Positions 12,136 through 34,049 of a DNA stretch of 64,000 nt are shown here, piece after piece. A program made the position numbers and the translations under genes. How positions within the stretch are numbered: position 1 is the stretch's first letter; each line of letters opens with the position of its first letter. The notes beneath the pieces were generated by a model. It was not told the DNA's origin. It ran no database searches and was given only the letters and a program-made list of their open reading frames with translations. The stretch comes from a phage: the sequence record NC_103192.1; one strand, given 5' to 3'.

Positions 12136-12136
12136 A

Positions 12137-17714: not shown

Positions 17715-18391
17715 TGGCAATAAATAGGAAAGATGCTGCCGTAAGATCCTTTATAGAAAAAATAATGAGGGACTACCACACCAGTATCAGGGCTAGAGTT
17801 GTCAGCGTAGATTACAGTATCCCTTCCGCAGCCGTGCAGCCAATAGCTGAAACCACGTTTGATGACGGAGATGTTGAGAGATACCCTCTTATCTATGATG
17901 TGCCAATCCAGGTGATGTCTGCAAACAGTGGGAAGGCAAGGTTAACACTCCCTATTAAGGCTGGAGATGTTGTAGGATTGCAGTTTTCAGAGAGAAATGA
18001 AAACAATAATGATGATCAACAAACTCACGGCCTGTTTCCGGGGTGGGCAATCACCTCTGTTCATTCAGACTCAAACGCCTTACAGATCGATCCTGATAAC
18101 GTAGAGTTATGGAATGATAGGGTTTATTTTAAACTGACACCTTCTGGCGATTTTGAGCTTCAAACACCTGGTGGGACATTACGGTGCGACAGCAGCGGGG
18201 AGTTTTCTTTCACTAACGGGGCTGCCAATTTGCGAGCTGCTGTGGATGGGAATATCAGAATGAATGGTGCTACAATAGACCCATCTGGTAGAATTATAAC
18301 TGCTGCTGGCGTGGATTTGGATTCATTCTATGCAGAATATAAAGGTCATACCCACTCTTGCCCTGATGGCGAGACAAGTGGACCGCACTAA
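17714..18391 (+). CDS. baseplate spike protein (gpV-like)
   Basis: 225 aa; C-terminus GHTHSCPDGETSGPH matches, from memory, the HxH...G..TGSP apex motif of P2 gpV-type spikes. Confidence 0.55.
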   Translation: MAINRKDAAVRSFIEKIMRDYHTSIRARVVSVDYSIPSAAVQPIAETTFDDGDVERYPLIYDVPIQVMSANSGKARLTLPIKAGDVVGLQFSERNENNNDDQQTHGLFPGWAITSVHSDSNALQIDPDNVELWNDRVYFKLTPSGDFELQTPGGTLRCDSSGEFSFTNGAANLRAAVDGNIRMNGATIDPSGRIITAAGVDLDSFYAEYKGHTHSCPDGETSGPH

Positions 18392-18403: not shown

Positions 18404-19120
18404 ATGGCTACGCTTTATAGTGATATATTGATGGACCCACAGACAGGCGATTTGGCGATAGACAAAGGTCTTGAGTTGATAGATTCAAACCAAGTAAGTC
18501 TGCGCCAGCGCTTGTGGATGAGGTTTAATACGTGGAAGGGGAGCTGGTACTTTGACGAGTTGTTTGGCTTCCCTTATATGGACTTTCTCAGTAAGAAGGT
18601 CATGAAGACTGTTCTTGATAACAAGATTATGGAAGTGGCAAGACAAGAGCCGGATGTGCTAAACATCGTAAACTTCCAGTCTACCATGGATCGAAGATCG
18701 AGAACATACCAAGCGTTCTTTGAGGTTGTTACCAAAGAGAACGAGATTGTAAGGCTGGCTTTTGTAGGTCTTGATCAGTTTACCTACCCACAGCCCGATT
18801 CTGGGACAACCTCTCTCTGTGATGATGAAGGTTGGATTAAGTGGGCTAATAAACTGTACTACCTGATCAACTTCAGATTGCCTAGAACCGGAGATGCCAC
18901 ATGGTGGAACCAGTATGCTGGTCCTGAGATGGAAAACCCGATCCCTGTAGGCTCTCTGTTGACTCAGGATAAAGATCTGCTGATGACTGAGGCAGAACAA
19001 ACCATTAACCGCAATACCTGGACGCTTGCTCCAGATGAGCGCGAATACTCTGGTGTTATTGCTACCTCTAATGATGAGGCTATTGCCAACCAGTCTGGTC
19101 GTGCTATTGATGTTAACTAA
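18404..19120 (+). CDS. baseplate wedge protein (gpW/gp25-like N-terminal domain)
   Basis: N-terminal pattern DILMDPQTGDLAID...LRQRLWMRFNTWKGSWYFDELFGFPY resembles gpW/gp25; 238 aa, so carries an extra C-terminal extension. Confidence 0.45.
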   Translation: MATLYSDILMDPQTGDLAIDKGLELIDSNQVSLRQRLWMRFNTWKGSWYFDELFGFPYMDFLSKKVMKTVLDNKIMEVARQEPDVLNIVNFQSTMDRRSRTYQAFFEVVTKENEIVRLAFVGLDQFTYPQPDSGTTSLCDDEGWIKWANKLYYLINFRLPRTGDATWWNQYAGPEMENPIPVGSLLTQDKDLLMTEAEQTINRNTWTLAPDEREYSGVIATSNDEAIANQSGRAIDVN

Positions 19121-19129
19121 GGAGAAATC

Positions 19130-19798
19130 ATGGCTGTAGCTTATCCTACAATACCAATCCCAGATCTTGAAGATGCAGAAACAGTCTTGAGTGATGACTT
19201 CTTGGTTGTCAACCAGACTGACGGGACAAGAAAGGCTAAGATTGATGATGTTGTCAATGATCTTAGCATTACTAAAATAGTTTATTTCACAGAGGGCGGT
19301 TATCTTAAGAGCAAGAAGGATTTTGCTTATGATCCGGAAACTAAGCGCTACTACACATGGAATGGAGATTATCCTAAAATAATTCTCCCAGATTCCACTG
19401 TAGAGGGTGCCGGAGGTGTGTCTGCAAAAGCATGGTCTGTTTTTGGAGAGCTTGCTGCAACTTCTTCAGGTAGGATAGTTGATTACGGCTCTATTGGTGG
19501 TCAACTTGACATGGATCTTGACGTTGCAGACACGTTTAAAGTTCGGCTCACTTCAAACACCACAATCTCTTTTGAAAATCAAACAGAAGGGCTCGACGGA
19601 GTGGCAAGAACTATAACTGTATGCATAACGCAGACCTCTGGTGGTAACAAAGTTTATTGGCCTGACAATGTTAAATGGGCCTACGGAAGAGATCCTATCC
19701 TAACATTTACAGCTGGCGCAACAGATATTTTCAAGTTGGAAACCTATGATAATGGGCTAACTTGGTACGGGGCATTGATCATCGCAGGAGCTATCTAA
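19130..19798 (+). CDS. short fibre/adaptor protein with conserved N-terminal anchor domain
   Basis: first ~100 aa (DDFLVVNQTDGTRKAKIDDVV...FTEGGYLKSKKDFAYDPE...AKAW) are clearly paralogous to the N-terminus of the 22434 gene product. Confidence 0.45.
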   Translation: MAVAYPTIPIPDLEDAETVLSDDFLVVNQTDGTRKAKIDDVVNDLSITKIVYFTEGGYLKSKKDFAYDPETKRYYTWNGDYPKIILPDSTVEGAGGVSAKAWSVFGELAATSSGRIVDYGSIGGQLDMDLDVADTFKVRLTSNTTISFENQTEGLDGVARTITVCITQTSGGNKVYWPDNVKWAYGRDPILTFTAGATDIFKLETYDNGLTWYGALIIAGAI

Positions 19799-19799
19799 G

Positions 19800-22397
19800 A
19801 TGCGTATTCAACACAACATTGATAACGTATTTCAGATGATCGAGGGGCACAGGAAGTGCCTCGATAACAACACAGGTATTACCAATCTCCCTACACAGAA
19901 CAAACTGGTAAACCAGGATGGACTTATAGCGTCAGGTTGGTCAGGGAGTAAGATAAACAATGATTGGGCAATGCATGAGTCCCAAGCTGTGTTGATTCTG
20001 GGATACATTGAGGCATACAGGGCATCAAAAAGCGATTTTTATCTAGACAGGGCCAAAGAGGCTTGGGAAGCCTACAACAGTCATCTTCTGGGCGTATATG
20101 CAGTAGAAAGTAAAATGCAAAGATTGTCCCACTACCCGTTATCCACAGATGGTGTTCCATCACATGGTGGGTTTAAAGATGTGGTTGTGTCTTTTAACAA
20201 AGGTAGAGGAAAAATCCCAGCAGGATCCCCGACATGGGGAGAATACTTGGACAAGGCTTTTCAGGCGTATAACGGTGTTTTAGGAAGAAACACTGTAGAC
20301 TCTGATGTTTACGGCGGCACAGATGCTAATCCTAATTGGACAACTTCCGGATTAAGTTGGTGGGTTGAGTGGTATATAGCATGGGATGGTAACCGCTATT
20401 GGGCCAACGGTAGCATAGCCGACAGTGGTCATACGTCTGCAGAGTTCGGCACAATCCAACTGCAAGATAAGGGTGTTACAGGCAACCACAAGGTTACCTA
20501 TTGTGTGAGATTGCCTCAAGAGCAAGGCGGATCGGTGATACCTGCTGGATCCCCTGTAATTGTAAATCCTATAAACGTGGTTGCAGACAATCAAGCCCCA
20601 GAGTTAGACGGGGAAGAGATGTGGTGTGACGCTTGTTATCAACTCTATACCTTAACAGGCGAGGAAAAGTATTACACCGCGTTTAAACAGTCTTACAATA
20701 AGTTGCTTAATTTCAGCGATATAAACGCCTACGACAAGCTGTTCAGAAAGACTACGTTGATTAAGGCACCGTTCACAGATGGCACTTGTCTAGTTGCAGG
20801 AACAGTACCTGTCATGAGTAGGGACAGTGACGGATATATCAATTTTAGAATGAACGCACGTCAGCCTTGCGAAATAATCCAAAAAGGGACTACATACAAA
20901 ATAGGCAGAGATGCTGAAATTGTTATGAATTTCGGAGGGGAAGGGGTTCTGTTCCAGCCACATTTCATCCTTAATGATGGCAACAATAACAAAAAACAGT
21001 ACAGAATAGGTGTCCCTTTTGGAGGAGCAGAGGTAACAGAAACAGTTGCCAAGGTTACTGATTTTGTAGAGGTGGTTGGTAAAGACGGTAACCCATATCT
21101 CTTGCCAAAAGAGGAAAACATTGCCGTAAGCGGTGGCGCTAGTGTCAGTATGCAGTATGATACCGACATTTACAACCACTCTGACAACTTCACCCGTTGT
21201 AATATAGCAAGAGGTAAAGTAACTTTCAATTTTGGGAGAGAGATTTCTTTAAACTCAGTAACTTATCGATCAGATGATGAGATGGTAAGGGTCAAATTTC
21301 TTGACAAAGACAGGTGGTTATGGTATGCTGATCTATATGCCACTAATGGACAATGGATAACAGAAACTCTTACTCTAGGAGATTTCAAATTAGATCCGAC
21401 ACAACCTCATCACACCGAAGAAGAGATTAAACCTTTCTTTGCTAATCCTAAGGGGCTCACCTCTGTAGATTTCAGCCTAAGCGACAGGCAGATAGGTAAT
21501 GGCTTGTTTGATCTGTATTGCGTCAACACACTGCCGCAATTTTATATTGCAGATAGAGATGCTTATCTAATCTGGTTTAGCGTATGGATGGCAAGCAAGA
21601 CAGAATCAACCGCTAAGGTTGGCGATTGCTATGTCAGAAACTACAAGCAAGGTGCATACAGGCACACACCAGGTGTGTTCCCTGCCGGAAAGGTGATAGA
21701 TAAGGAAAACTATCTCTTAGAGGAAAGGCCAAATTGGCCCTACCCTGGCATGCAATACCCAGCAGTCTACTGCATGGGTGCAGAAAACATAGATCGCCAT
21801 AGATTGTCAAATACAATAGGCTTTCTGTATGACGCTCAAGTCTGGTATAATAATACATTTAAGACAGAGGGTCCAGTTGCCTCACGTTATGTATGGCAGA
21901 GAGGTAATGAAGGATTAACTGGTTGGTGGGAGATGGTAGATAACTCTAAGCTCCAGTCAAGATCTTTTGTTGCTGCGTGCCGCACAATATATGAGCTCAA
22001 GAAACATAAAGAACCTGTTGATGAAAGACTATTCCTGTTCTGCCAGAAATGGGCATGGTTCCTCAACAGATTCCAGTCATCTCATTCAGGAAATTTGCCT
22101 ACAGACTTTAACACCTCTGGTGGATACTCTTATCAAGATAGAGGAGATAGGATGTGGGTGGTAGGTGAATGGCTTGCAGGTTGCTGCTGGCTAGGTCTGT
22201 GCGGGTATTCAGAAACAATACCTCAAATAGATATTGTTGTAGAAGCCTGTATGAAGCTACTGCAAAAGCACCACTTTATTAATGGGGATAATGTTTTAAA
22301 TGGCTGCTGGGCAGTTTCTGATCCGGTAGGCTATCACTCTGGCGAAATCCTTCGCGGTCTGGGCCTTTATGCTCAATACCGTGGATTGTACCTTTAA
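19800..22397 (+). CDS. tail-associated protein, possible glycan-degrading enzyme
   Basis: 865 aa; aromatic/Trp-rich segments that could fit an (alpha/alpha)6-barrel hydrolase, unverified. Confidence 0.4.
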   Translation: MRIQHNIDNVFQMIEGHRKCLDNNTGITNLPTQNKLVNQDGLIASGWSGSKINNDWAMHESQAVLILGYIEAYRASKSDFYLDRAKEAWEAYNSHLLGVYAVESKMQRLSHYPLSTDGVPSHGGFKDVVVSFNKGRGKIPAGSPTWGEYLDKAFQAYNGVLGRNTVDSDVYGGTDANPNWTTSGLSWWVEWYIAWDGNRYWANGSIADSGHTSAEFGTIQLQDKGVTGNHKVTYCVRLPQEQGGSVIPAGSPVIVNPINVVADNQAPELDGEEMWCDACYQLYTLTGEEKYYTAFKQSYNKLLNFSDINAYDKLFRKTTLIKAPFTDGTCLVAGTVPVMSRDSDGYINFRMNARQPCEIIQKGTTYKIGRDAEIVMNFGGEGVLFQPHFILNDGNNNKKQYRIGVPFGGAEVTETVAKVTDFVEVVGKDGNPYLLPKEENIAVSGGASVSMQYDTDIYNHSDNFTRCNIARGKVTFNFGREISLNSVTYRSDDEMVRVKFLDKDRWLWYADLYATNGQWITETLTLGDFKLDPTQPHHTEEEIKPFFANPKGLTSVDFSLSDRQIGNGLFDLYCVNTLPQFYIADRDAYLIWFSVWMASKTESTAKVGDCYVRNYKQGAYRHTPGVFPAGKVIDKENYLLEERPNWPYPGMQYPAVYCMGAENIDRHRLSNTIGFLYDAQVWYNNTFKTEGPVASRYVWQRGNEGLTGWWEMVDNSKLQSRSFVAACRTIYELKKHKEPVDERLFLFCQKWAWFLNRFQSSHSGNLPTDFNTSGGYSYQDRGDRMWVVGEWLAGCCWLGLCGYSETIPQIDIVVEACMKLLQKHHFINGDNVLNGCWAVSDPVGYHSGEILRGLGLYAQYRGLYL

Positions 22398-22400
22398 CAT

Positions 22401-22424
22401 AGGGGGCTGTTTGCCCCCTTTTCA
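22401..22424 (+). terminator. hairpin AGGGGGC-TGTTT-GCCCCCT + TTTT
   Basis: 7-bp stem read from sequence. Confidence 0.55.
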
Positions 22425-22433
22425 GGAGAAAGA

Positions 22434-25400
22434 ATGGCTGATATTAAAGTTGTCAGAATTGAATCTCTTCCTGCCACTACTGCAGTGACAGAGGATGATT
22501 ACCTGGTTGTTCAACAACCAGACCTGACCCGTCGTGTAAAAATTGGCGATGTTGTCCATGTGGATGGGACTGTTTCTCATGTAATCTCCTTTAAGGAAGG
22601 TGGTAAGTTAAACGGCCCAATGGATTTTGCCTACTTCGAAGAGGAAGACCTCTACCTGCGTTGGAAAGGCGAATTTCCGCACACCGTTCCTGCACTGTCT
22701 TCACCTTACGCTGATGGTGGGATTACCGATGCTGCATGGATGGTATATACAGATCCGTCCTTAAGGGAGGAGCTGGAGTCTACCATTGGCGCATCTATGA
22801 TCATGACAGCCGAAGGGCAGTCTGTCCAGGATGTAATGGATGTTACGGTTCAGACAGCCAACGATGCTAAAGCACTTGCACAGCGGGTAGATTTTGGTAC
22901 AGTGCATACTGTAGGCGATGTTATTCACCTTGTCAACTTTGTTGGTCCTGCAGTTATTGAAGAGGGAAGAACTACTAACTACCCTTCTGTAGCAGCTGGT
23001 GAAAAATTTCTGAACGGTGTGGTATCTCGTCGTGATACTACAACTGTTGATGGTATTTTCCGTGGTGCTACCTCTGGAGCCATGTATACCATTGCAGTAA
23101 CCAATGGTGTGGCAACAACAAAAAGAATAGCCCTTCGTGATGAATTTAAACGCCTGGAGGCAAACAACCCAACAAGAACAATTATCCGTGCCGGAGATGA
23201 TTTAAACACGGCAGGGTACTTGCAGCTTGATGCAACAGGTCGTTGGGGTATGTGGAACCAACAAACAGCCTCGTGGCAACCTCTTGCTATAGAGCAAGGC
23301 GGCACAGGGGCCAGAGATGCCGCAGGTGCACGCATTAATTTAGGGGCTTTCTATAAGCAACGTGCAGCCCTTGAGTCAAATTTTAATATCAATAACTTGA
23401 CTGGTAATCAGGATGGTATATACTACCAGCCGATGACTGCTTATGCAACTGAGGCAAATGGTTACCCTGCAGGTTCTGGTGCTGGTCACTTGATTGTCTG
23501 GCAGAACAATGCTAACGGCGGTACAGGTTGTCGTCAGGAATACTATCCATTCTCTAACGTAGATGTTTGGTATTTGAGAACCTATCAGGCCAACACAAAT
23601 CAGTGGACCGCATGGCAGCCGATGGTCAGACCTCGTAACGATGAGACCTTTAGATCGCACATCGGTCTTGGGTCTAGGAATTCTCCTACCTTCGGGAACC
23701 TTTACTTATCTCAAAGTTCTGCTAATGTTAAGTCGGCATCTGGCATTGTTAACGGGGACAAATACAGTGCTGACGGTGTCCTTGAGCATGGGTATAGGAT
23801 CTATTCCGAGGTAAGAGACGACAATAAGGCGTGGTTAACAATCCACCTGCACAAAGGGGCAAAAGGGTCTGAAACTCATAAATATTTAGGTTTCCGCGAA
23901 GACGGTGTATTAGACTGTCCTAAATACATGCAGGTTGGGGATCTTACTGGTCAGTTGACAAACTGGGGACTTGGAGAGTGGATTCGTAGCTCAGGAGCAG
24001 AAAGAGGCTTCTGGGGGTCCAAGAAAGCCGCCAAGATGGTCATCTGGGATGGTGGGATGGATGAGTCTGGTAACGGCACTCTGGAATGGGGTGTTTATAA
24101 CAACCGGAAGGCCAAGTGGGAACCTTTACCTCACGCCGCAGGTGGTACTGGGGCTACAACTTTAGCAGAAGCTCAAAACCTGTTTAGAATACCTATGGCA
24201 GGTGGGGTTAAGGATTTCTTAACTCTACCAAGAACAGCAGCCATGGTAGATGGTAAATATTACCCTATTATTGTAAGAACAGATCCGTACTATGCATCAG
24301 CTGTTGGGACAGATATTACAATAGTTACAAGATCCTCTGCTGGCGACGACCCTATGAACTGCGCAACACTCCAGTGTCATTACAGAACTGGTGGTTGGAC
24401 AGATCGTGGAGACTCTTTTACTGGTGTTGTAAACTTCTACCAGAACGAAAGAGCAATACTTGGCTGTGTTTCTCCTACTCGCGGAAAACAAGAGTATGTT
24501 GCTTTTTATGTAGAGGCTAGAGCTTTCCCGGTAAGCGTATATACAAGCCGAAACGTGCTTGAGGTATTTACCAGAGAAAATGACTGGCAGGTAGGGAATG
24601 TAACTGATAATCAGGACGGTGTTAAGTTTTGTGCTCCGTTAGAGTCGGCAGACTTAAATCTTGCGATCAAGGGTGGTGGTGTAACAAACACCAGACCTCT
24701 GGTTGAGTTCAAGGGAACACCTGGGTTCTATACAGGCGGTAGTACAGATCGGCACTATGTAGGCACACCTGACAGAATGGTTCTAATGAGTAAGACAGAA
24801 ATGCCTCCTGTAGAGATGTGGTACAACGGTCTTAACTACATTTGCCCAGGCAGCCAAACCACCAGGAAAGCACTGTTCTCTAACGCAGGGTTCCAAGCTG
24901 CATCGGAAGGAACAGAGGATCTGATCAACAATACCTTTACCTCTAAATGCGGTAATGGCGCTGGTCTCAAAGGTCAGGCAGAGTTCAGATCTACTCCAGA
25001 GGCTGGTCAAGTTATTGTTCGTGATGTTGTAGGTTCTGCTCACAGATTCTACAATTTCAATAAAGATGGTACTTTCTCAGCTCCTGGTGGTTTTGTATGT
25101 CATACTGGTGCAGACTGGAACAACCAGTTCGGGCCTAACAACCCGTCAAAAATAATGGCTGGCAACGTCAACGGGCCAGAAGGTTCGATGGTTGTTGGTG
25201 GACTGTCTGTGGCGTTTTCTGGGAATTATGCTTTCCAGATAGCTGGTCGCCTTGATCAGTTGTATACCAGATCTATCGAAGGTGGTACTCATAGACCGTG
25301 GAACAAAATCTTCTCACACAAAGGTGCAGGTCTTGACTCTACAGACCTAAACACTTACGATGGTACTCGTGAGGGCATTTACCACCAACCATTCGATGCC

Positions 25401-26249
25401 AACTCAACATCTGAAAGACATTACCCGGCACCATATGCTGGTCACCTAATTGTTTACCAGAACAATACAAACAATCCGAGAGGCTGCGTACAGGAGTACA
25501 TTACACGTTTTGGTGACAGATACACGCGTGTTGGTAACATGGATAGAACTGGTTCCACTTATATGTGGGAAGTTTGGCGGCATGATTCTGGTAAAGCTAT
25601 CCAGTTACGCCCGAACCGCAATGTTGATGAAACAGATAAAGAGCTGTGCATTCATGTTGGTGGTTCTGAAAATCCCAGCAACAACGGTAACTTACCTAAG
25701 GATAATGCTGTGCTCCATTATTGGGGCAACGGCAGCACAGGAAATCGTCCAAACGTGTTAGAGTTTAAGGTTCTTGACGATTCTCAAGCAAATTGGGTAT
25801 GGCATTGTGGTACCTTGCCGGATAAATCAAGATATCTTTCTGTAAACGGTGCAGTAAACTGTGTATCCGTGAACCAAAACTCTGACCGCGACCTGAAGGA
25901 TAACATAGAAGTTATTCCTAACGCGTTAGAAGCTATCCGGAAGATGAATGGCTATACCTACACTTTAAAAGAGAATGGTATGCCTTACGCAGGGGTAATT
26001 GCTCAAGAGGTTATGGAAGCATTACCTGAAGCGGTTGGATCTTTCGTGCAAAGGAAAGAGGCTCCTGATCCCACTCAAGATGGAACTCCTTTGATAACAG
26101 AGGAAAGATTCTACAGCGTGGATTACGCAGCTGTGACAGGCTTGCTTGTCCAAGTTTGTAGGGAACAGGATGATAAAATAACCGCCCTTGAGGAACAGGT
26201 TAAAAAATTGACAGAGGTTGTTACTGGGTTGCAAGAGAAACTGAAGTAA
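22434..26249 (+). CDS. long tail fibre with C-terminal intramolecular chaperone (peptidase S74-like) domain
   Basis: 1271 aa; N-terminal anchor shared with the 19130 gene product; C-terminal ~140 aa (...NQNSDRDLKDNIEVIPNALEAIRKMNGYTYTLKENG...) matches the self-cleaving chaperone domain of endosialidase/T5 L-shaped fibre type proteins. Confidence 0.7.
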   Translation: MADIKVVRIESLPATTAVTEDDYLVVQQPDLTRRVKIGDVVHVDGTVSHVISFKEGGKLNGPMDFAYFEEEDLYLRWKGEFPHTVPALSSPYADGGITDAAWMVYTDPSLREELESTIGASMIMTAEGQSVQDVMDVTVQTANDAKALAQRVDFGTVHTVGDVIHLVNFVGPAVIEEGRTTNYPSVAAGEKFLNGVVSRRDTTTVDGIFRGATSGAMYTIAVTNGVATTKRIALRDEFKRLEANNPTRTIIRAGDDLNTAGYLQLDATGRWGMWNQQTASWQPLAIEQGGTGARDAAGARINLGAFYKQRAALESNFNINNLTGNQDGIYYQPMTAYATEANGYPAGSGAGHLIVWQNNANGGTGCRQEYYPFSNVDVWYLRTYQANTNQWTAWQPMVRPRNDETFRSHIGLGSRNSPTFGNLYLSQSSANVKSASGIVNGDKYSADGVLEHGYRIYSEVRDDNKAWLTIHLHKGAKGSETHKYLGFREDGVLDCPKYMQVGDLTGQLTNWGLGEWIRSSGAERGFWGSKKAAKMVIWDGGMDESGNGTLEWGVYNNRKAKWEPLPHAAGGTGATTLAEAQNLFRIPMAGGVKDFLTLPRTAAMVDGKYYPIIVRTDPYYASAVGTDITIVTRSSAGDDPMNCATLQCHYRTGGWTDRGDSFTGVVNFYQNERAILGCVSPTRGKQEYVAFYVEARAFPVSVYTSRNVLEVFTRENDWQVGNVTDNQDGVKFCAPLESADLNLAIKGGGVTNTRPLVEFKGTPGFYTGGSTDRHYVGTPDRMVLMSKTEMPPVEMWYNGLNYICPGSQTTRKALFSNAGFQAASEGTEDLINNTFTSKCGNGAGLKGQAEFRSTPEAGQVIVRDVVGSAHRFYNFNKDGTFSAPGGFVCHTGADWNNQFGPNNPSKIMAGNVNGPEGSMVVGGLSVAFSGNYAFQIAGRLDQLYTRSIEGGTHRPWNKIFSHKGAGLDSTDLNTYDGTREGIYHQPFDANSTSERHYPAPYAGHLIVYQNNTNNPRGCVQEYITRFGDRYTRVGNMDRTGSTYMWEVWRHDSGKAIQLRPNRNVDETDKELCIHVGGSENPSNNGNLPKDNAVLHYWGNGSTGNRPNVLEFKVLDDSQANWVWHCGTLPDKSRYLSVNGAVNCVSVNQNSDRDLKDNIEVIPNALEAIRKMNGYTYTLKENGMPYAGVIAQEVMEALPEAVGSFVQRKEAPDPTQDGTPLITEERFYSVDYAAVTGLLVQVCREQDDKITALEEQVKKLTEVVTGLQEKLK

Positions 26250-26256
26250 CTGTTTT

Positions 26257-26286
26257 GCCCTCGCTTCGGCGGGGGCTTTTTGTTTG
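26257..26286 (+). terminator. rho-independent terminator with UUCG tetraloop
   Basis: GCCCTCGC-TTCG-GCGGGGGC then TTTTTGTTTG; shares 13-mer CGCTTCGGCGGGG with the terminators at 31768 and 58128. Confidence 0.75.
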
Positions 26287-26288
26287 TA

Positions 26289-26317
26289 TTGCGTATTAAC
26301 TTAAAATCTGGTAAAAT
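26289..26317 (+). promoter_or_regulatory. promoter TTGCGT-17-TGgTAAAAT
   Basis: -35 at 26289-26294, extended -10 at 26309-26317. Confidence 0.55.
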
Positions 26318-26348
26318 AACTATCATGATTGTTTAACCTGGAGGCACA

Positions 26349-26939
26349 ATGTTTTTATGGGAAAGGCCTAGATACCTTCCGGATATTAGATTGGAGCTGC
26401 TGGCAGATATTGTTACGTTTAAAAGTCCGTTTACAGGTAAAACGCAAAAAGTAACCTATGCCACACCTAATTGGAAAGGCACTTTGACGGTCTCTAATAT
26501 TAGCGAGTCACAGTTACTAGAGCTTAAGAGCTTTGTTGATCAGGTGTATAAAGATGGAAACATCTTTCTTATTAAAACTTACGGTCACTCAGTAACAGCT
26601 AATGAGCCAATCGCCCTTGGGCCTACTGGTAACGACGATTTTTTGAAGACGGTTGGGTGGGAGCCGAACAGAGACATAGCCAGAGCTGGGGATAAAATAT
26701 CTGTCAATGATGAGTTGAAAGTGGTAACAGCTCCAGTACGCAGCGATGGTGTGGGGGCTGCTGTTATAAGCATATCTCCAAGACTTAGAAAACCTATTGC
26801 CGCAGGGGATACTATGAAGATAATAACTCAATCTCCGAAGGGCAGGTTTCATATCAGGGATATTTATAAAATTAAGCAAAAAGTCGATGCTATGCAAAAA
26901 GGTGATAATATAGTTATCAACTTCTTTGAGGATTTCTAA
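26349..26939 (+). CDS. hypothetical tail tip protein
   Basis: 196 aa, GGAGG RBS; first gene of a four-gene block ending with the J-like protein. Confidence 0.4.
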   Translation: MFLWERPRYLPDIRLELLADIVTFKSPFTGKTQKVTYATPNWKGTLTVSNISESQLLELKSFVDQVYKDGNIFLIKTYGHSVTANEPIALGPTGNDDFLKTVGWEPNRDIARAGDKISVNDELKVVTAPVRSDGVGAAVISISPRLRKPIAAGDTMKIITQSPKGRFHIRDIYKIKQKVDAMQKGDNIVINFFEDF

Positions 26940-26940
26940 G

Positions 26941-27492
26941 ATGATTAGAGCGCCATTAGATAATTTATTTCTTGAAAAGCTGGAGCTTGATGGTGTTGAG
27001 ATCTTAATTGCTGCAAAGTTGGAGCTACCGACAGGAACTGTCAGGGTGTGTTCAGGAACCGGTGTTGTAGTAATTGAGGGGCAACATTTTATAGGGATAG
27101 GTGGATCAGCAACATTAACTGCTGTGTCTGAGAAAGATGCCACCAACTTCGGATCTGTGGTAGCGACATTGAACGGGTTTGATCCTAAGTATGTGGGTGA
27201 TCTACTGAAGACGGAGTATTCTGGTTGTCGTGCCACGTTGTACATTACCGCTATGGAGAATGGTCTGCCTGTTACAACCAATGGCTTGTTTGACGGCCTT
27301 ATAACAGATATGGCTATTCAGACAGGTGAGAATAGTGCTTTGTCCATATCCATCTCTTCCATCTTCAACAGTTGGTTAAGAGGTTTTCCTTATCGGTACA
27401 CGGAGGAAAGCCACAGCTCAAGAAACGATAATGACAGATTTTTTAAATATGTGGATCAGGTGGCGAGCCGCCCGATCATTTGGGAGGTTTAA
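26941..27492 (+). CDS. hypothetical tail tip protein
   Basis: ATG 26941 with GAGGA RBS (track start 26926 is TTG). Confidence 0.4.
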   Translation: MIRAPLDNLFLEKLELDGVEILIAAKLELPTGTVRVCSGTGVVVIEGQHFIGIGGSATLTAVSEKDATNFGSVVATLNGFDPKYVGDLLKTEYSGCRATLYITAMENGLPVTTNGLFDGLITDMAIQTGENSALSISISSIFNSWLRGFPYRYTEESHSSRNDNDRFFKYVDQVASRPIIWEV

Positions 27493-27917
27493 TGAGCACA
27501 CGCCCTCGTTTAGTGGATTGGCAAGAAAGATTGTGGAAAGTGTTTGACGAAGAGGCCACCATACCTTTTGAATGGGGATTCCACGATTGCTGCACCTTTG
27601 CAGCTAAGTGTGTTGATGCCCAATACGGAACAGATTTTCTTTCTAACTTCGAAGGAACGTATAAAACAGAGTTGGAAAGCAAAAGATGGTGCATGCTCCG
27701 TTTCAAAACCACACACCTGCCTACTATTTTTGATCTCTTTATGACTCGACTAGATACTCCTAAACAGGTTCAGCGTGGCGATATTGTTATCTTCGAGGGT
27801 CTGAACGGGCTCACCGCTGGTGTGTTCTGGAACAACCAGATTTGGGCGAAAGGTGATAAAGGGGTCTTTATGTTCGATATGAAAGATTCTATCGTTGTTG
27901 ATGTCTGGAGGTATTAA
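27492..27917 (+). CDS. NlpC/P60-like tail protein (gpK-like)
   Basis: 141 aa; Cys motif WGFHDCCTFAAKC and later GDIVIF...G resemble the papain-like NlpC/P60 catalytic core; ATG 27492 with GGGAGG RBS. Confidence 0.45.
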   Translation: MSTRPRLVDWQERLWKVFDEEATIPFEWGFHDCCTFAAKCVDAQYGTDFLSNFEGTYKTELESKRWCMLRFKTTHLPTIFDLFMTRLDTPKQVQRGDIVIFEGLNGLTAGVFWNNQIWAKGDKGVFMFDMKDSIVVDVWRY

Positions 27918-30900
27918 TGCCAATTGCAATGATTGATAACATCGTTGCTTCTGCAAGATCTTCAAGTTATGACTGGAACGCATCCAAGGCAGCTCTGGCT
28001 GACAGCCTGAACACTGTTACCACCAGAACTCTGGATAAGATTTTCGAAGGAAACAAATCTTACAGGAGTCAGCAAGATAGACAAAAACTTCTCAGATCTT
28101 CTGCTGCACCTTGCTCTGTAGTGTATGGGAAGACACGCACATCTGGGTTGCTTGCGTTTTTGGAGCAGGACAGGGACAGAACCCTTCATTGTGCTATTGT
28201 TCTTGCCAATCATCCCTTGGAAGGTATAGAAGATATACTTATCGACGGTAATCCTATTTCTTCGTATGGCGATTTGGTATCGTGGGAGTTACATACCGAC
28301 AGGAAAACCTCTGATCCTTTCATGGGCACACACTGCCCTTCATGGTCACCAGACATGATAGGCAGAGGGATCAGTTGGCTACGTGCCAGCTTCAAGTTTG
28401 ACCCTAACAAGTTTCCTTTTGGGTTGCCAAACGTTACACTTGTCAAGGTTGGTAAAAAATGCTATGATCCTCGTATCAGTAAAGAGGTGTATACCAATAA
28501 CGCGGCCTTGGTGATCCTAGACTATTTAAGAACGTACCTCAAATGTCCTGACGAAACCATTAACTGGGAGTCCTTCAAGGAGGCTGCCAACATATGCGAC
28601 GAGGCGGTAAAAAACGCTGACGGAACCAGTGAGCGACGTTACACCATTAACGGTGAGTTTGACATGGATGAGGCCCCAGCAAGCATTATGGCAGAAATGC
28701 TGAAAGCTTGTGGTGCAGATCTCAGCTATGTAGCTGGTAAGTATGGTTTGCTGGTTGGTGCATACTATGGCCCGGCAACAATGACACTGAGTGAGGATTG
28801 TGTCTGTGGTGAGGTCAAGATCTATCCGGAAGCCTCATTTGACAAAAGATCCAACACAATAACTGGCAGATTCACCAGTCCTACCAAAGGGTATTCTGAA
28901 ACAGATTTTCCATCAGTGTTTGTCCCAGAGTGGATAGAGAAGGATGGAGAAAGAAAGATAATCGATATAGACTATCGCTTTGTTACCAGCCCTTATCAAG
29001 CTCAGCGTGTTTCTGCAATCTTCTTAAGACGTGCCAGAGCTGGCAGGATTATTGAAGTCACCTGCAATATGCGAGGTTTTAAATTTAAGCCTGGCCGTTA
29101 TGTTACAATGGACCTCCCAAGTATTGGTATAGTGGGCCAAGAAATGAGGGTTCTTGAATGGGAGTTTACCAAAAAGGGTGGTGTCAAGGTAAAACTCCGT
29201 CAAGATGCTAAAGAGTGGAATGATGCCACAGGGCAACTTCCGGATTCTGGCGATGTAGATATTCCGATATCTCCATCTGGTGTAGCTCAACCGCAAAACT
29301 TCAGATATTCCGTTCTCCAAGCTGGAGAAGTAACTCACGGTGTTTTGGCTTGGGACAACGTTGGGACCTACGCTCAAAATATTGTGCAGGTAAGAAAGAA
29401 CGGAGAGATTGTTTGGACAGCACAAACAGTTGAGCAGTTTGTCCGAGTAGAAGGCTTGACCAAAGGGTCATACACAGCAACCGTGGTTGCAACATCTTAT
29501 AAAGGTGGCGTATCTCCGGAAGCATATTGTGAGTTCAACATTCAGGCACCTGAAGCTCCTGTTTCTGTAGAGGTTAAGCAAGGATACTTTGCTATCACCT
29601 TGATTCCGCATAGTAGGGATTTAGCAAGTGTTAGCACTCAGTACGACTTTTGGACATCTGGGATGACAAGATTGCCAGATACCAGTGATGCAACCGTTAC
29701 TTCAAAAGCCACCCGCATGGGTGTTGGTTCAACTTGGACATCTGAAGGTCTGCAGAACGATAAGATTTATTATTGGTATATTCGAACCACAAATGCTTTT
29801 GGTAGTTCTCAGTTTGTAGAGTGTGCTGCACGCTGCTATACCTCCATTGAAGATTTGATGCCTCAGATAGATGCTGAATTTAAAAAGACAGAAACTTATA
29901 AAGAGTTGATGAGCACTTTAGATTCCTCTATTGAAGAGGTTGAAAATCGTGTCACAGAACTTAACAAGTACATGGACGGAAGGGTAGATGAGGCATTCCA
30001 ACAACTTGGGGATAGGATAGGTGCTGTAGTTACAGAGACAACTCAGAAGTTTGAGGATGTCAATGGCAATATTACAGCGCTGGATAAGAAACTTGTTGCT
30101 GCACAGAACAAGTTCACCAACGATCTGAACACTGAAAGTGGAAGACTGGCATCCCTGATTGAGACAACCAATAAAGCAACCACTGATCTTCTGAACAAAA
30201 AGACAGAGGCTTTAGACGAGAAATTGGTTGCAGCCAAAGGGGAGTTGGTAGAACAAATAGGTGGAGTGGAGAGCGGATACCTTGCCGGAGATAAAACTCT
30301 GGATGGCAAGATCAATACCCAGAGAACAGAACTTGACGCAAGCATCTTGAGCACCAATAAGGCGACAGTGGATCTTCTTAACAGGACCTCTGAAACTCTG
30401 GATCAAAAGATCAGTCAGACAAACGCGACGGTATCTAAGAACTATACCACCCTTGACGGTAAGATAACTACCGCAAAAACTGATCTCAATACCTTGATTG
30501 CCAATACCAACAAGGCTACCACAGATTTGTTGAATCAGAAAACCTCTGCACTGTCAGAGCAGATAACTTCTGCACGTGGGGAGATTTCTACCAACAAACA
30601 GGCGATTAAGGATTTGGATGGGAAGCTGACCTCCACAAAAACAGCACTGGACGCTACAATCTCCGATACCAACAAAGCAACTGTGGATCTTATTAACGGC
30701 ACAGCGTCAGCTATTCGTCAAGAACTTGCTGTTGCTAAGCAGGAGATCATTAATGATGTTGGGGATGTATCAGAGCTAAGAGCTGCAGTGGCTACAACAT
30801 CTAAGGCTGTGACCGACTTAGAGGGCAAAGTAAATGCTCAATGGGGCACAAAAATACAGGTAGACTCCGCAGGGAATAAGTATGTGGCAGGTATCCAATT

Positions 30901-31756
30901 GGGCATGGAAGGCTCTGGAGGCCAAGTTCAATCATACTTCATGGTTAGTGCAAACAACTTTGCGGTATACAACCCCGGAAATGGAACAGCAACCCTTGCT
31001 TTCGCAATCAAGAACAACCAAGCGTTCTTGAAAGATGCTTTTATAGAGAACGGGACGATCTCTTCTGCCAAGATTGCACAAGAAATTTCGTCAAACAACT
31101 ACGATGGCAACGGGTACCATAAATACGGTCGGTATATTAACAAGAACGGGCACGCCCAGTTTATGGATGTGTGGGTGAAAGGTAATATCAACGCTAGTGC
31201 AGGTAACTTCACAGGGGCAGTTAACGCCACCAGTGGTACCTTCCGTGGAGATGTTTATGCCAATAATGGTAGCTTTAGAGGCACCATAGATGCAACAGGA
31301 GGTACATTCCGTGGACGTGTAGAAGCTTCCGTTATCCGTGCTAACCAGTTCGAAGGTGCAATCGTTGCACATAGGACCTATGGTGACTGCCCTCCGGTAT
31401 ATAACTCGCAGCAGAGGGTTTGCCGTTGGAGGTGGAGATATGTGGACAACGTGCAAGGCCAAGGTAAAAACGTAACATTCTTCTTTAAACTGAACGGTAC
31501 TCGTGCCAACTCTCAACTAAATGCGTGGATAGCTGGTCACCAATTACTTGCTGGCAAGAAGTACGGAAACGATAACGATGGCATGTGTGCAGTTGGGATA
31601 ACAGGTCTAGGTGAACAAACTATAGACATTATTATCGAGATTTACACACCATGGTCAACAGGGAACGTGACAGGCATTACAATATCTTGTCCTACAGTCG
31701 TTGTAAGTCGTTCTAACTCAAGTTTCCAAGGTCCTTGGAATGAGTCTCACGACTAA
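27917..31756 (+). CDS. lambda-J-like central tail fibre / host specificity protein (Phage-tail_3 domain)
   Basis: 1279 aa; N-terminal region (SVVYGKTRTSGLLAFLE...LHCAIVLANHPLEGIEDILIDGNPI...GRYVTMDLPSIGIVGQEMRVLEWEF) matches the gpJ-type domain pattern; central tandem coiled-coil repeats; Gly-rich C-terminus. Confidence 0.65.
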   Translation: MPIAMIDNIVASARSSSYDWNASKAALADSLNTVTTRTLDKIFEGNKSYRSQQDRQKLLRSSAAPCSVVYGKTRTSGLLAFLEQDRDRTLHCAIVLANHPLEGIEDILIDGNPISSYGDLVSWELHTDRKTSDPFMGTHCPSWSPDMIGRGISWLRASFKFDPNKFPFGLPNVTLVKVGKKCYDPRISKEVYTNNAALVILDYLRTYLKCPDETINWESFKEAANICDEAVKNADGTSERRYTINGEFDMDEAPASIMAEMLKACGADLSYVAGKYGLLVGAYYGPATMTLSEDCVCGEVKIYPEASFDKRSNTITGRFTSPTKGYSETDFPSVFVPEWIEKDGERKIIDIDYRFVTSPYQAQRVSAIFLRRARAGRIIEVTCNMRGFKFKPGRYVTMDLPSIGIVGQEMRVLEWEFTKKGGVKVKLRQDAKEWNDATGQLPDSGDVDIPISPSGVAQPQNFRYSVLQAGEVTHGVLAWDNVGTYAQNIVQVRKNGEIVWTAQTVEQFVRVEGLTKGSYTATVVATSYKGGVSPEAYCEFNIQAPEAPVSVEVKQGYFAITLIPHSRDLASVSTQYDFWTSGMTRLPDTSDATVTSKATRMGVGSTWTSEGLQNDKIYYWYIRTTNAFGSSQFVECAARCYTSIEDLMPQIDAEFKKTETYKELMSTLDSSIEEVENRVTELNKYMDGRVDEAFQQLGDRIGAVVTETTQKFEDVNGNITALDKKLVAAQNKFTNDLNTESGRLASLIETTNKATTDLLNKKTEALDEKLVAAKGELVEQIGGVESGYLAGDKTLDGKINTQRTELDASILSTNKATVDLLNRTSETLDQKISQTNATVSKNYTTLDGKITTAKTDLNTLIANTNKATTDLLNQKTSALSEQITSARGEISTNKQAIKDLDGKLTSTKTALDATISDTNKATVDLINGTASAIRQELAVAKQEIINDVGDVSELRAAVATTSKAVTDLEGKVNAQWGTKIQVDSAGNKYVAGIQLGMEGSGGQVQSYFMVSANNFAVYNPGNGTATLAFAIKNNQAFLKDAFIENGTISSAKIAQEISSNNYDGNGYHKYGRYINKNGHAQFMDVWVKGNINASAGNFTGAVNATSGTFRGDVYANNGSFRGTIDATGGTFRGRVEASVIRANQFEGAIVAHRTYGDCPPVYNSQQRVCRWRWRYVDNVQGQGKNVTFFFKLNGTRANSQLNAWIAGHQLLAGKKYGNDNDGMCAVGITGLGEQTIDIIIEIYTPWSTGNVTGITISCPTVVVSRSNSSFQGPWNESHD
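30064..30790 (+). repeat. tandem ~50-aa coiled-coil repeats inside the J-like gene
   Basis: repeated unit ...LDGKI.T.KT.L...I..TNKAT.DLLN... at least four times at protein level, with correspondingly similar DNA units. Confidence 0.5.
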
Positions 31757-31763
31757 CAGTAAA

Positions 31764-31790
31764 GCCCCGCTTCGGCGGGGTTTATTTTTA
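31764..31790 (+). terminator. rho-independent terminator with UUCG tetraloop
   Basis: GCCCCGC-TTCG-GCGGGG then TTTATTTTTA. Confidence 0.75.
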
Positions 31791-31798
31791 TGCTCAGA

Positions 31799-31827
31799 TT
31801 GACTATTGTTACAAAATTTGGTAAAAT
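31799..31827 (+). promoter_or_regulatory. promoter TTGACT-17-TGgTAAAAT
   Basis: -35 at 31799-31804, extended -10 at 31819-31827. Confidence 0.6.
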
Positions 31828-31860
31828 ACCTTGTAGAGATTTTCATACCGGAGGAGTGAC

Positions 31861-33351
31861 GTGGCTAAGTATGGATTGACAGAGGCTGGTTTCGTTATAC
31901 CAACCCTAAATGACCTAATCGTTGAAACTAAGCAAAGCCTGATCCGTGCTTTTGGCGAAAACTTCAACGTACAGAGTAACTCCGTTGCAGATAAGCTGAC
32001 CACTATCTTCAACGAGCGAGAGTATCAACTTATTCTTATGGCAGCATCTGTATACGCATCGCAGACGCTGTATGGGGCAGAAGGTATTTACCTGGATGAG
32101 CTTCTTGGAAGACAGGGTATTTACCGAAGAGGCCGTTCTAAATCATCAGGTACCTGCCAGTTGACAATCAACACAACTGTGCCGTACAATATGATTTATG
32201 ATTCCAAAACTTATACGCTGGACAGTGGCAACTTTGTTCTTAGCAACGATGTGCAAGTAGCAGGGAATCTTATTGCTCACAGAATAAATGCTCCAGACCT
32301 AAGGATTGGGAAATACAACTTTCAAATTACCAACCAGACAGATGGAAGCATCAAAACAAAAAGTCTGGTTTTAACCGATAAGTCTCTGGACTCTTCTGAT
32401 TTACCAAGCTTTTACGGCGAGATTAAGCAATTCATTGTAGATAATACAACCCTGTTGAACGACGATTTGATTCAGATCGATATGTTGACAGGAACGTTGT
32501 GGATAGGATACAATTCGAATCTTGATCAAGTTGGGCTTAATAGCAGAGTAGATTTCAGAGTATCCCCGATTGTAGGTGAAAGAACTATCACCCTAGATGT
32601 TATCGCTAACGAGGCTGGTGAGCTGTCAAGAGAGGCAGAAACCGTGACAACAATGTCGCCTACTCCCAGCGGATTTATCAAGCTTACCAACCGAGAAAGA
32701 TTCAATGAGGGCAGGGATGTTGAGAAGGACTCAGAGTATCGCTTAAGAGCTTCCAGCACTAAACAGTTGACATCTAAAGCTACCCGTCCTGCAATCCTTA
32801 GCGCTGTAAGCGAGGTGAAAGGTGTTGAGAAAGTAAGAGTGTTCTCTAACAACACCGATAAAACGGATGCGAAAGGTATACCACCTTATAAGTTTCAAGT
32901 GGTGGTGTTTGGTGGTGCAACAGAGGATATCTGTCAGGCGCTGTATCAAACCATAGCTTGCACAAACAGAACTTATGGGAATATCTTCTACGATATTACC
33001 ACATCAGACGGTCAAACTGAAAGGATTTATTACTCCAAGGCAAATACCTACCGCCTAGATGTAAGAATTACCTACTCAGGTGCTGCGCTTTCCACAACCG
33101 AAAAAGATGCCATTACAGAGGCTCTTTTGCAGGTTGTTAACGGCTTGGATGTTGCCGATACGTTGTACAATATCCAATTGGTCGGTGCTGCATCAGCTGC
33201 TGTGTCAATAGGCAGATTTAACAGACTGGTAATTCAAGTTAAACCTGTTGGAGCCTCTGATGAAGCTTACACTACAAACGATATTGTTGCGAACATGACC
33301 GAGGTGTTTGACCTCGATGAAAGTAATATAACTTTCCAACAAACTATTTAA
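31861..33351 (+). CDS. baseplate J-like protein (gp6/gpJ family)
   Basis: 496 aa, GTG start with GGAGGAG RBS; N-terminal pattern (...GFVIPTLNDLIVETK...GAEGIYLDELLGRQGIYRRG...) recalled as baseplate-J-like. Confidence 0.5.
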   Translation: MAKYGLTEAGFVIPTLNDLIVETKQSLIRAFGENFNVQSNSVADKLTTIFNEREYQLILMAASVYASQTLYGAEGIYLDELLGRQGIYRRGRSKSSGTCQLTINTTVPYNMIYDSKTYTLDSGNFVLSNDVQVAGNLIAHRINAPDLRIGKYNFQITNQTDGSIKTKSLVLTDKSLDSSDLPSFYGEIKQFIVDNTTLLNDDLIQIDMLTGTLWIGYNSNLDQVGLNSRVDFRVSPIVGERTITLDVIANEAGELSREAETVTTMSPTPSGFIKLTNRERFNEGRDVEKDSEYRLRASSTKQLTSKATRPAILSAVSEVKGVEKVRVFSNNTDKTDAKGIPPYKFQVVVFGGATEDICQALYQTIACTNRTYGNIFYDITTSDGQTERIYYSKANTYRLDVRITYSGAALSTTEKDAITEALLQVVNGLDVADTLYNIQLVGAASAAVSIGRFNRLVIQVKPVGASDEAYTTNDIVANMTEVFDLDESNITFQQTI

Positions 33352-33362: not shown

Positions 33363-34049
33363 ATGGCAGAGATTAAGTCGGATGTTAACCACATCCACAC
33401 TCTGCCAGATTTTGTTCAGGGGGGTCTTGATTACCTCCCTGGGGATTTTCTGGCTGAGAAGGTTAATTTAGTCACATTCTTAACCGTATACCTTAAAAGG
33501 TTGGAGAATGTTGATAAAATGCTGGTAGGCTTGGCTGAAGGAAGATTGCTTAACAATGCCAGCGGGAGATACCTTGACGAAGTTGGTAATCAACTTGGTA
33601 TTCTTAGGAATGGTCTTTCAGACGCGGATTTTCGTGCTACGCTGATTATTCAGCAGGCAGCATCATCAAGAGGTGGTACTCGCGAAGATGTCATCTCCAC
33701 CTTGCGACAATTGTTCGGAAGAGACAATTTCGATACGTGGAAAGGTGACAACTTTAGATTTGACATAAATATTAGAAAAACTTGCTTCGACATATTACAG
33801 TCCATCGATCAGATCTTAGATATGCTGCCATTGCCTTGTCATTTGCGTCTTACAGAATCGCAAGGGCAAGCTTTTGGTTTTGAAGGAGACTCTACAGCTC
33901 TTGGCTTCGGATCAGTGTGGGAAGAAAACCAGTTCGGAGTTGGTGGGCTGGCTACTTTGCTGTATGTTCCTGACGTAAGACCTGATTGGGACACCACAAC
34001 TATTTATTGTGAAAGTATTACAGTAAACGCAACTAGACAGGAGGGTTAA
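33363..34049 (+). CDS. putative baseplate wedge protein (gpI-like)
   Basis: 228 aa, immediately downstream of the J-like baseplate gene; synteny only. Confidence 0.4.
   Translation: MAEIKSDVNHIHTLPDFVQGGLDYLPGDFLAEKVNLVTFLTVYLKRLENVDKMLVGLAEGRLLNNASGRYLDEVGNQLGILRNGLSDADFRATLIIQQAASSRGGTREDVISTLRQLFGRDNFDTWKGDNFRFDINIRKTCFDILQSIDQILDMLPLPCHLRLTESQGQAFGFEGDSTALGFGSVWEENQFGVGGLATLLYVPDVRPDWDTTTIYCESITVNATRQEG

Follow-up and report, generated by a model that had tools for sequence, protein, structure and literature searches.

The 64,000-nucleotide stretch of phage record NC_103192.1 analyzed here (the window) carries, within an operon for a contractile tail, a complete and colinear tail-tip cassette of siphovirus type. 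The cassette spans 5.4 kb (26349-31756) and encodes, with tight gene junctions, a distal tail protein (Dit)-like protein, a split hub N-domain, a DUF6950 protein and a J/megatron-like protein, which we refer to as gp40, gp39, gp38 and gp37 after their counterparts in Escherichia phage rV5 (Table 1). An earlier sequence-only reading of this DNA had proposed that a lambda/gene transfer agent (GTA)-type module interrupts a set of contractile baseplate genes and supplies a J-like central fiber, making an unusual composite adsorption apparatus. We found that a contractile (Mu/P2/phi92-type) baseplate gene set and a lambda/GTA-type tip module do coexist in a single operon, and that the module is a genuine siphovirus tail-tip cassette on the combined strength of colinear homology, fold comparison and profile matches. 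As to its role, we consider it reasonably probable that the cassette, once acquired, was co-opted as an accessory adhesin that is not a conduit for DNA.

Homology of the four cassette genes

The genes called by the sequence-only reading were all present where it had placed them, with significant profile support, and these included the two small tail proteins now recognized as gp40 and gp39. In Seuratvirus VogelGryff, the tape measure gene is directly followed by four genes of 194, 194, 144 and 879 codons that align pairwise and colinearly with gp40, gp39, gp38 and gp37 at 31, 38, 45 and 54% amino acid identity, respectively (over 684 amino acids in the case of gp37). The identical four-gene order was found in Pseudomonas phage PSA-2T and Mesorhizobium phage P1, both of which have an annotated Dit that aligns with gp40; the annotation of P1 follows RcGTA in naming the four products Dit, hub protein, peptidase and megatron. 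A siphovirus tip would be expected directly 3′ of the tape measure gene and together with a non-contractile tube gene. In the window, 11 kb separate the tape measure gene from the start of the module, a stretch that holds the whole central baseplate of the myovirus and three fiber genes, and the sole tube gene is paired with a sheath gene.

Homology of the small proteins was detected mainly through profiles and models. Searches of the Protein Data Bank (PDB) with the single sequences of gp38, gp39 and gp40 returned nothing, family profiles of the Dit-like and DUF6950 proteins gave nothing credible there, and lenient Pfam and NCBIfam scans of the small module proteins found no GTA, lambda L/M/K or NlpC_P60 matches. 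From its PHROG profile and gene order, gp40 is predicted to be a Dit homolog. A word-indexed homolog search was too insensitive (three matches for gp39 and eight for gp38), and an exhaustive HMMER search was needed for gp39, for which it recovered 627 relatives. A profile of 58 sequences of the gp39 family, the only one of the three to match in the PDB, aligned with residues ~15-179 of the pb3 hub proteins of DT57C (E 2.3e-8) and T5 (E 1.4e-5), and PF09931 was weakly present in three family members. Because the profile matches the N-terminal 180 residues of pb3, gp39 is identified as a split-off hub attachment domain, like g13 of RcGTA.

The claim of an NlpC/P60-like protein held at the level of fold and failed at the level of sequence, where gp38 is a DUF6950 protein that the Pfam NlpC_P60 model did not match even at E<=10. 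Its AlphaFold model (predicted local distance difference test score, pLDDT, 88) matched MepS/Spr, LytE and RipA in Foldseek (E 1.8e-5 to 1e-2, template modeling (TM) scores 0.5-0.6), including MepS/Spr at E about 2e-5 and TM 0.58. Cys33 is invariant, while neither family alignment contains an invariant histidine; we take Thr108, on the strand after the QRGD motif, to occupy the expected position of the catalytic histidine, as judged by eye without structural superposition. The modeled protein may be a non-catalytic or non-canonical NlpC/P60 member comparable to RipD, which is among its fold matches, and its position in the module is that of the g14 peptidase of RcGTA.

The fourth protein, gp37, does contain the J-type domain that had been predicted for it: Ig_J_second (E 1.8e-31) and Phage_Tail_Tip (E 8.3e-37) were both found in Pfam, and a sequence search of the PDB matched its C-terminal part to lambda J (8iyk_J, E 3e-28). 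For residues 1-660, the AlphaFold model (pLDDT 78) had lambda J (8k35) as its top Foldseek match at E 1.4e-36, with further matches to the hub proteins of T5/DT57C (pb3), T1, JBD30, Chi and RcGTA. The N-terminal 500 residues are 56% identical to the Seuratvirus "J-like tail tip protein" and 44-50% identical to the Nonagvirus protein, compared with 20-30% for GTA-type "megatron" and T5-type hub proteins. Phage-tail_3, another domain suggested for checking, reached only E 0.1 in gp37 itself and is carried by most of its 40-57%-identical homologs. Ig_J fell below its cut-off (24.8 versus 29), and the lambda_TipJ equivalog model (NF049904) scored 152 bits against a cut-off of 1950; by these comparisons gp37 has domains in common with lambda J without being its ortholog.

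The N-terminus of gp37 sets it apart from the homologs compared. All 27 siphoviral and prophage homologs with an intact N-terminus (27/27) begin with a hydrophobic, Gly/Ala-rich stretch of ~45 residues, with a maximum 19-residue Kyte-Doolittle hydropathy of 1.2-2.5, followed by a conserved ERKQxLR motif. In gp37 the segment is instead hydrophilic, with a maximum hydropathy of 0.31 and 15 charged residues among 60, and it is 86% conserved in the diverged relative L009 described below. The function of the hydrophobic segment is taken from RcGTA, in which megatron residues 1-46 form an "iris" that blocks the tail channel and is proposed to become an outer-membrane DNA pore (PMC7296036). Relative to these 27 homologs, gp37 is thus unique in having lost the iris/penetration segment.

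Placement, regulation and conservation of the cassette

The window derives from a Vequintavirus, an rV5-like Escherichia coli phage with a contractile tail; genomes of rV5-like myoviruses are about 137 kb. When the 14,948 bases of the tail/adsorption locus were compared with phage records, 125 matched, 113 of them over at least 80% of the length at 90-95% identity (also summarized as 92-93% identity at 98-100% coverage), among them rV5 (V5), the BASEL phages EduardKellenberger (Bas59) and MaxBurger, navn and FV3. Nucleotide identity of this 15-kb region to rV5 and Bas59 was 92-93%, and the deposited annotations of both correspond one-to-one with the open reading frames (ORFs) of the window, in full synteny with rV5 ORF44-ORF35. 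This composite gene set is not unusual for this genome, being a standard annotated locus in more than 110 Vequintavirus records. Its mosaic appearance, and nothing more, might suggest a contig assembled chimerically from a myovirus and a siphovirus; the identical junctions in 113 records of independent origin (the finished rV5 genome and BASEL phages among them), the uniform composition across the junctions, and the flanking regulatory cassettes of resident type make the chance of this negligible. Separately, 18 GenBank entries labeled "Campylobacter phage" (host Campylobacter jejuni; records MG065644-MG065690) were 92-93% identical to the locus, and these host labels look doubtful, suggesting coliphage carry-over or mislabeling.

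Every expected part of a Mu/P2/phi92-type contractile baseplate was found: sheath, tube, hub, a spike with an HxH apex, sheath initiator, Baseplate_J wedge and its partner. The order 3′ of the tape measure gene is tube initiator, plug, hub, spike, sheath initiator, 12.6 kb of other genes and then two wedge genes. The genes at 8547 and 9934 had been read as sheath and tube, and PF11863, phrog_205 and PF11681 bear this out as opposed to a siphovirus major tail protein pair; the HTH...GETSGP apex noted for the spike is literally in its translation, which ends in ...YKGHTHSCPDGETSGPH (also given as ...GHTHSCPDGETSGPH). Of the baseplate families proposed for profile search, Baseplate_J was recovered (E 2.2e-9), and the Pfam models Phage_base_V and GPW_gp25 had no match. 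The sheath initiator of the window likewise had no match in the Pfam scan, while its 92% identical ortholog in L009 carries PF10934 (Sheath_initiator). Identities to the Seunavirus SSE121 orthologs were 71% for the sheath initiator and 60% and 62% for the two wedge proteins. In phi92, gp135-gp138 are counterparts of the tube initiator, plug, hub and spike, and gp145/gp146 are the wedge equivalent (PMC13450770).

The interruption of this order by about 12 kb, as originally described, stood for the 5.4-kb module and not for the remaining 7.1 kb of the 12.6 kb (19130-26249), which holds an adaptor, an 865-amino-acid fiber and an S74 fiber, all lateral-fiber genes normal for the lineage. We compared 35-kb tail regions of five relatives outside the genus, namely Seunavirus SSE121 and FENT2, Mydovirus VIK251, Serratia phage Kashira and the phAPEC8-like phage Eryne. 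In 5/5, fiber genes lie between sheath initiator and wedge, and 35-41%-identical counterparts of the adaptor and 865-amino-acid fiber occur at the same position in relatives including SSE121 and Eryne. The layout is shared by phi92, with gp139 as sheath initiator, then gp140-144, then gp145/146 as wedge (PMC13450770). Since fiber genes hold this position in every relative checked and in phi92, their place inside the baseplate operon is the ancestral state of the lineage. The module proteins, by comparison, had no tblastn match (E<=1e-3) in any of the five tail regions, and both rV5 and the more diverged L009 have the module where it lies in the window; because of this distribution, 26349-31756 is the only foreign part of the 12.6 kb.

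The module is bracketed by two regulatory cassettes, each consisting of a GC-rich hairpin with a common 13-mer (CGCTTCGGCGGGG), a T-run, the extended -10 sequence TGGTAAAAT and GGAGG; the downstream one restarts transcription into the wedge genes. Across the window, TGGTAAAAT occurs at five sites (6993, 12157, 26309, 31819 and 43258) against 0.63 expected, all of them intergenic, on the plus strand and upstream of structural gene blocks, and it probably represents a promoter class of the phage itself that serves these structural operons. A variant, TGATAAAAT, occupies the equivalent place in SSE121 and L009. The module-less SSE121 and Kashira have a single equivalent cassette before the wedge gene, and the module is therefore equipped with a separate promoter of the resident type.

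The ratio of nonsynonymous to synonymous substitution rates (dN/dS) of the four module genes against rV5 and Bas59 was 0-0.047 at dS 0.07-0.31, indistinguishable from that of the hub, spike, sheath initiator and wedge, and more than 110 genomes have all four frames intact. The more diverged L009 (GCA_002973135.1, contig JZQG01000004.1, 54305-73738) is a 74-kb contig in an E. coli assembly that represents a vequintavirus-like phage. Its wedge is 92% identical to that of the window at the amino acid level, compared with 83, 87, 61 and 74% for gp40, gp39, gp38 and gp37, making its tip cassette a distinct allele, with a J-like protein that is 80 amino acids shorter in the coiled coil. The cassette is fixed in Vequintavirus and kept intact by purifying selection. 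A decaying or selfish recombination remnant without function for the myovirus could also be of foreign origin and restricted to one genus; given the intact frames, the low dN/dS, retention at an unchanged position in a lineage whose wedge has diverged by 8%, a phage-type promoter of its own, tight junctions and gp37 peptides in virions, this explanation is very improbable, and the selection data effectively refute it. We propose that the genus ancestor acquired a whole tail-tip cassette of a GTA/T5-type siphovirus beside its resident fiber genes, that the donor's closest living relatives would be the Queuovirinae (Seuratvirus and Nonagvirus), and that the cassette would now be a separate late transcription unit.

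Function and position in the virion

In the reading that we favor, the cassette would serve as a further receptor-binding appendage of a multivalent ("Swiss army knife") adsorption apparatus. The four proteins would probably come together as a small, closed tip complex with C3/C6 symmetry, from which a trimeric fiber made of the fibronectin type III (FN3) domains, the ~300-residue coiled coil and the conserved distal domain would project. The remainder of gp37 beyond the hub, including Phage_Tail_Tip, fits a fiber, with a coiled coil that varies in sequence and length between lineages. With a hydrophilic segment in place of the iris/penetration segment, the complex would no longer be a DNA conduit. 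We infer an adhesin rather than a conduit because the gating segment is lost, no second tube or tape measure gene accompanies the module in the window, and the phage's own hub and spike are intact. The more specific proposal, in which an entire siphovirus tip complex (Dit hexamer, split hub trimer, NlpC/P60-fold protein and J-like trimer) self-assembles without tube or tape measure as a receptor-binding appendage of a contractile baseplate, strikes us as plausible, if on balance somewhat doubtful. If true, an entire DNA-delivery tip complex, minus its gating segment, would have been turned into an adhesin. Such a complex standing free on a myovirus would also be a clear case of module-level exchange between tail morphotypes, and a natural template for engineering extra receptor specificities onto contractile phages.

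Several observations weigh against this reading. We know of nothing on a myovirus baseplate to which a Dit ring would dock, and the first 65 residues of gp37 had no similarity to any product of the window that might give a clue to docking. The assignment of gp40 comes from a PHROG profile and synteny, PDB sequence and family-profile searches for a Dit fold having been empty. The distal domain of gp37 is 92-99% conserved within the genus, hence not hypervariable, and points to no receptor; comparison of these 180 amino acids with known receptor-binding domains showed them to be genus-specific, with only 30% identity to the end of a Nonagvirus J protein. Mass spectrometry of purified rV5 virions found gp37 (four peptides and five spectra, with one strong tryptic match) and, in what are shallow data, did not detect gp38-gp40 (PMC3606486). 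Lastly, cryo-electron microscopy of Bas49 and Bas54 resolved three other fiber types and did not place a gp37-type protein (PMC12143355).

These last two data sets also bear on where the complex might sit. As originally proposed, gp37 would be a central fiber, one Dit6-hub3-J3 complex lying on the tail axis and capping or surrounding the gp138-type spike, in which case a lambda-like fiber must be shed or opened before the spike punctures. The module proteins are indeed homologous to axial tip proteins, a Dit ring and C3 hub are naturally axial and single-copy, RefSeq names gp37 "central tail fiber J", and five spectra for a 140-kDa protein would fit three copies per virion, although the rV5 spectra are too shallow to tell 3 copies from 18. 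However, the axis already holds a complete hub and iron-tipped spike like those of phi92, which are functional without the module (PMC13450770), and in the window these are intact and strongly constrained by dN/dS against rV5 and Bas59, as is the wedge and as are the four module genes. Module-less relatives keep the same central baseplate at 46-60% amino acid identity (27-39% in the more distant Eryne), gp37 lacks the channel-gating segment of its relatives, and no central fiber was reported in the Bas49/Bas54 baseplate maps (PMC12143355) or rV5 micrographs (PMC3606486). We accordingly set aside the J-like central fiber as quite unlikely, and off-axis mounting of the complex is weakly favored over axial mounting. 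A variant in which the J module replaced the myovirus hub and spike is contradicted by the intact and constrained hub and spike.

The undetected gp38-gp40 would be explained if only gp37 were a virion fiber, attached by its remodeled N-terminus or hub domains, with the other three acting as assembly scaffolds or chaperones outside the particle. In keeping with this, gp37 is the sole module protein detected in rV5 virions, the g14 peptidase of RcGTA is needed for tail assembly (PMC7296036), and gp38 is the fastest-evolving of the four between lineages (61% amino acid identity to L009) and lacks a canonical catalytic histidine. Against it, only 19 proteins were detected in rV5 virions, with 15 spectra for the sheath (PMC3606486), so that non-detection is uninformative; Dit and the hub N-domain are stoichiometric structural parts in all solved relatives, and gp39 and gp40 are 99.5-100% conserved relative to rV5 and Bas59, as expected for tightly packed structural proteins. 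We regard this arrangement as unlikely and continue to prefer a virion appendage containing all four proteins. One possible mount for such an appendage is the unassigned density that the RBPseg study described beyond the head of one lateral fiber of Bas49 and Bas54; the same study described a Vequintavirinae fiber with a beta-sandwich-rich N-terminus "common in central tail fibers" (PMC12143355). The Bas59 annotation lists the gp37 counterpart as a lateral fiber, and the BASEL authors considered it unclear which genes build which of the three visualized fiber sets (PMC8594841).

Neighboring features and comparison with known systems

Table 1. Features of the tail and adsorption locus, with positions in the window (gp37 segments in residues)
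Feature	Position	Strand	Support
Tail sheath	8547-9923	+	PF11863 DUF3383 E 8.1e-12; phrog_205 "tail sheath" E 1.1e-118; annotated sheath in Bas59, rV5
Tail tube	9934-10407	+	PF11681 E 4e-9; annotated tube in Bas59, rV5
HNH/homing endonuclease, 540 aa	10513-12135	+	phrog_559 E 8.5e-112
Tape measure protein	12997-15333	+	PF20155 TMP_3 E 2.5e-18
Tube initiator	15412-16323	+	Dit_like E 3.7e-22
Plug	16336-16716	+	Pam3_gp18 E 8.2e-19
Baseplate hub	16716-17714	+	phrog_196 "baseplate hub" E 2.1e-83
Central spike, gp138-type (phi92-type N-domain)	17714-18391	+	PF18352 E 1.4e-9; HTH iron-binding apex
Sheath initiator (gp25/gpW class)	18404-19120	+	phrog_120 E 6.4e-21
Adaptor with Tail_spike_N, 222 aa	19130-19798	+	Pfam, PHROGs
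Fiber, 865 aa	19800-22397	+	Pfam, PHROGs
Fiber with Tail_spike_N and S74 chaperone, 1271 aa	22434-26249	+	PF13884 E 5.6e-15; PHROGs
Upstream regulatory cassette	26257-26345	+	Terminator hairpin (GCCCTCGCTTCGGCGGGGGC + T-run); TGGTAAAAT extended -10; GGAGG ribosome-binding site
Module gene 1, Dit-like, 196 aa (rV5 gp40)	26349-26939	+	phrog_1302 "distal tail protein" E 4e-50
Module gene 2, split hub N-terminal (attachment) domain, 183 aa (rV5 gp39)	26941-27492	+	phrog_2048 E 8.9e-68
Module gene 3, DUF6950 protein, NlpC/P60 fold (model), 141 aa (rV5 gp38)	27492-27917	+	PF22262 E 2.7e-33
Module gene 4, J/megatron-like protein, 1279 aa (rV5 gp37)	27917-31756	+	phrog_31 "central tail fiber J" E 3.8e-162
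gp37 hydrophilic N-terminal segment	residues 1-63
gp37 hub domains	residues about 66-435
gp37 two FN3/Ig domains	residues about 455-652
gp37 variable coiled coil	residues about 653-956
gp37 Phage_Tail_Tip	residues 957-1097
gp37 genus-specific distal domain	residues 1098-1279
Downstream regulatory cassette	31762-31855	+	Terminator (CCCCGCTTCGGCGGGG); TTGACT-17-TAAAAT promoter with TGG; GGAGG
Wedge, Baseplate_J-type	31861-33351	+	PF04865 E 2.2e-9; phrog_6 E 4e-45
Second wedge protein, gpI-type partner	33363-34049	+	phrog_4056 E 2.3e-103
Mu-S-type short tail fiber, first copy	36134-37174
Chaperone	37189-37773
Mu-S-type short tail fiber, second copy	38186-39232

The S74 fiber is the sole fast-evolving gene of the locus, with 86-87% amino acid identity to the different alleles of rV5 and Bas59, dS of 0.60-0.64 and dN/dS of 0.13-0.16. 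Its rapid divergence is consistent with allelic exchange of a receptor-binding fiber, and its residues ~1-134 resemble the N-termini of the 222-amino-acid adaptor and of the third fiber of SSE121. Downstream of the wedge, the two Mu-S-type short tail fiber genes are paralogous, with the chaperone gene between them; outside the genus, relatives carry a single copy. Within 10408-12208, the endonuclease ORF lies in a 1.64-kb insertion that separates the gene for the tail tube from those for the tail assembly chaperone and distinguishes the window from rV5 and Bas59, which have only ~160 bases there. Among 117 matching phage records, the full insertion was found in HMD-6 only (98.8%), with diverged copies (82-84%) in three others; the remaining records listed match only its flanks.

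Among coliphages, those of the rV5 type belong to the most frequently isolated and the most broadly lytic, and they are candidate agents for therapy and for control of O157. The roles of their approximately nine fiber-like proteins are openly unsettled (PMC8594841, PMC12143355). The genes themselves, their similarities to PY54 and J-type proteins and their names are already in GenBank, RefSeq and the rV5 paper, and the sequence feature is thus already known: the GenBank notes of rV5 describe ORFs 37-40 as similar to tail proteins of Yersinia phage PY54, RefSeq calls gp40 "distal tail protein", and BASEL names include "lateral tail fiber protein with fibronectin type III domain" and "cell wall hydrolase protein". 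We found no explicit description or localization of the module in vequintaviruses in the searchable literature, which is weak evidence as most subscription journals lie outside it. Within that literature, we did not find it stated that the four genes together make up an entire, colinear siphovirus tip cassette, that this is restricted to Vequintavirus sensu stricto, that it has its own promoter cassette, or that the J-like protein has lost the iris/penetration segment. Treating gp40-gp37 as one co-inherited tip cassette, and not as four loosely annotated "tail" genes, gives a concrete testable unit.

Compared with rV5, the type species of Vequintavirus (ORFs 44-35), and Bas59, the locus is otherwise identical gene for gene, and the module proteins are 97.7-100% identical to those of rV5. 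The baseplates of phi92 and phiTE have the same core parts and operon order, with fiber genes between sheath initiator and wedge (PMC13450770, PMC11972413); Eryne, which samples the phi92-like lineage, has no homolog of the four-gene module, and the same is true of the Seunavirus, Mydovirus and Serratia relatives. The tip module of the Queuovirinae (Seuratvirus VogelGryff bas25_0017-0020 and Nonagvirus JenK1) agrees in its four genes, their order and their tight junctions, and the hub, FN3 and Phage_Tail_Tip parts of its J-like protein align end to end with gp37. There, however, the module comes directly after the tape measure gene, the tube that it closes is non-contractile, and the J-like protein has a hydrophobic Gly/Ala-rich start, is ~400 amino acids shorter with a much shorter coiled coil, and ends in a different distal part.

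Among structurally solved tips, pb9-pb3 of T5/DT57C and gpM-gpL-gpJ of lambda (PDB 7zhj, 8hqz, 8k35 and 8iyk) share the hub fold and FN3 domains with the module (Foldseek E 1e-36 to 1e-29), whereas in the window the hub is split over two genes and no siphovirus tube or tape measure gene lies alongside. The same four-part architecture and order are found in RcGTA, with g12 (Dit), g13 (hub), g14 (peptidase) and g15 (megatron) (PDB 6tba; PMC7296036); the gp37 model matches a chain of 6tba at E 1.2e-13, and the GTA-type phage Mesorhizobium P1 aligns with all four module proteins. The RcGTA hub contains a 4-Cys iron-sulfur domain and its megatron an N-terminal iris/penetration domain. By contrast, gp39 is shorter (183 amino acids, 2 Cys), and gp37 is without the iris and has a lambda-J-type fiber end in place of the fiber-binding domain.

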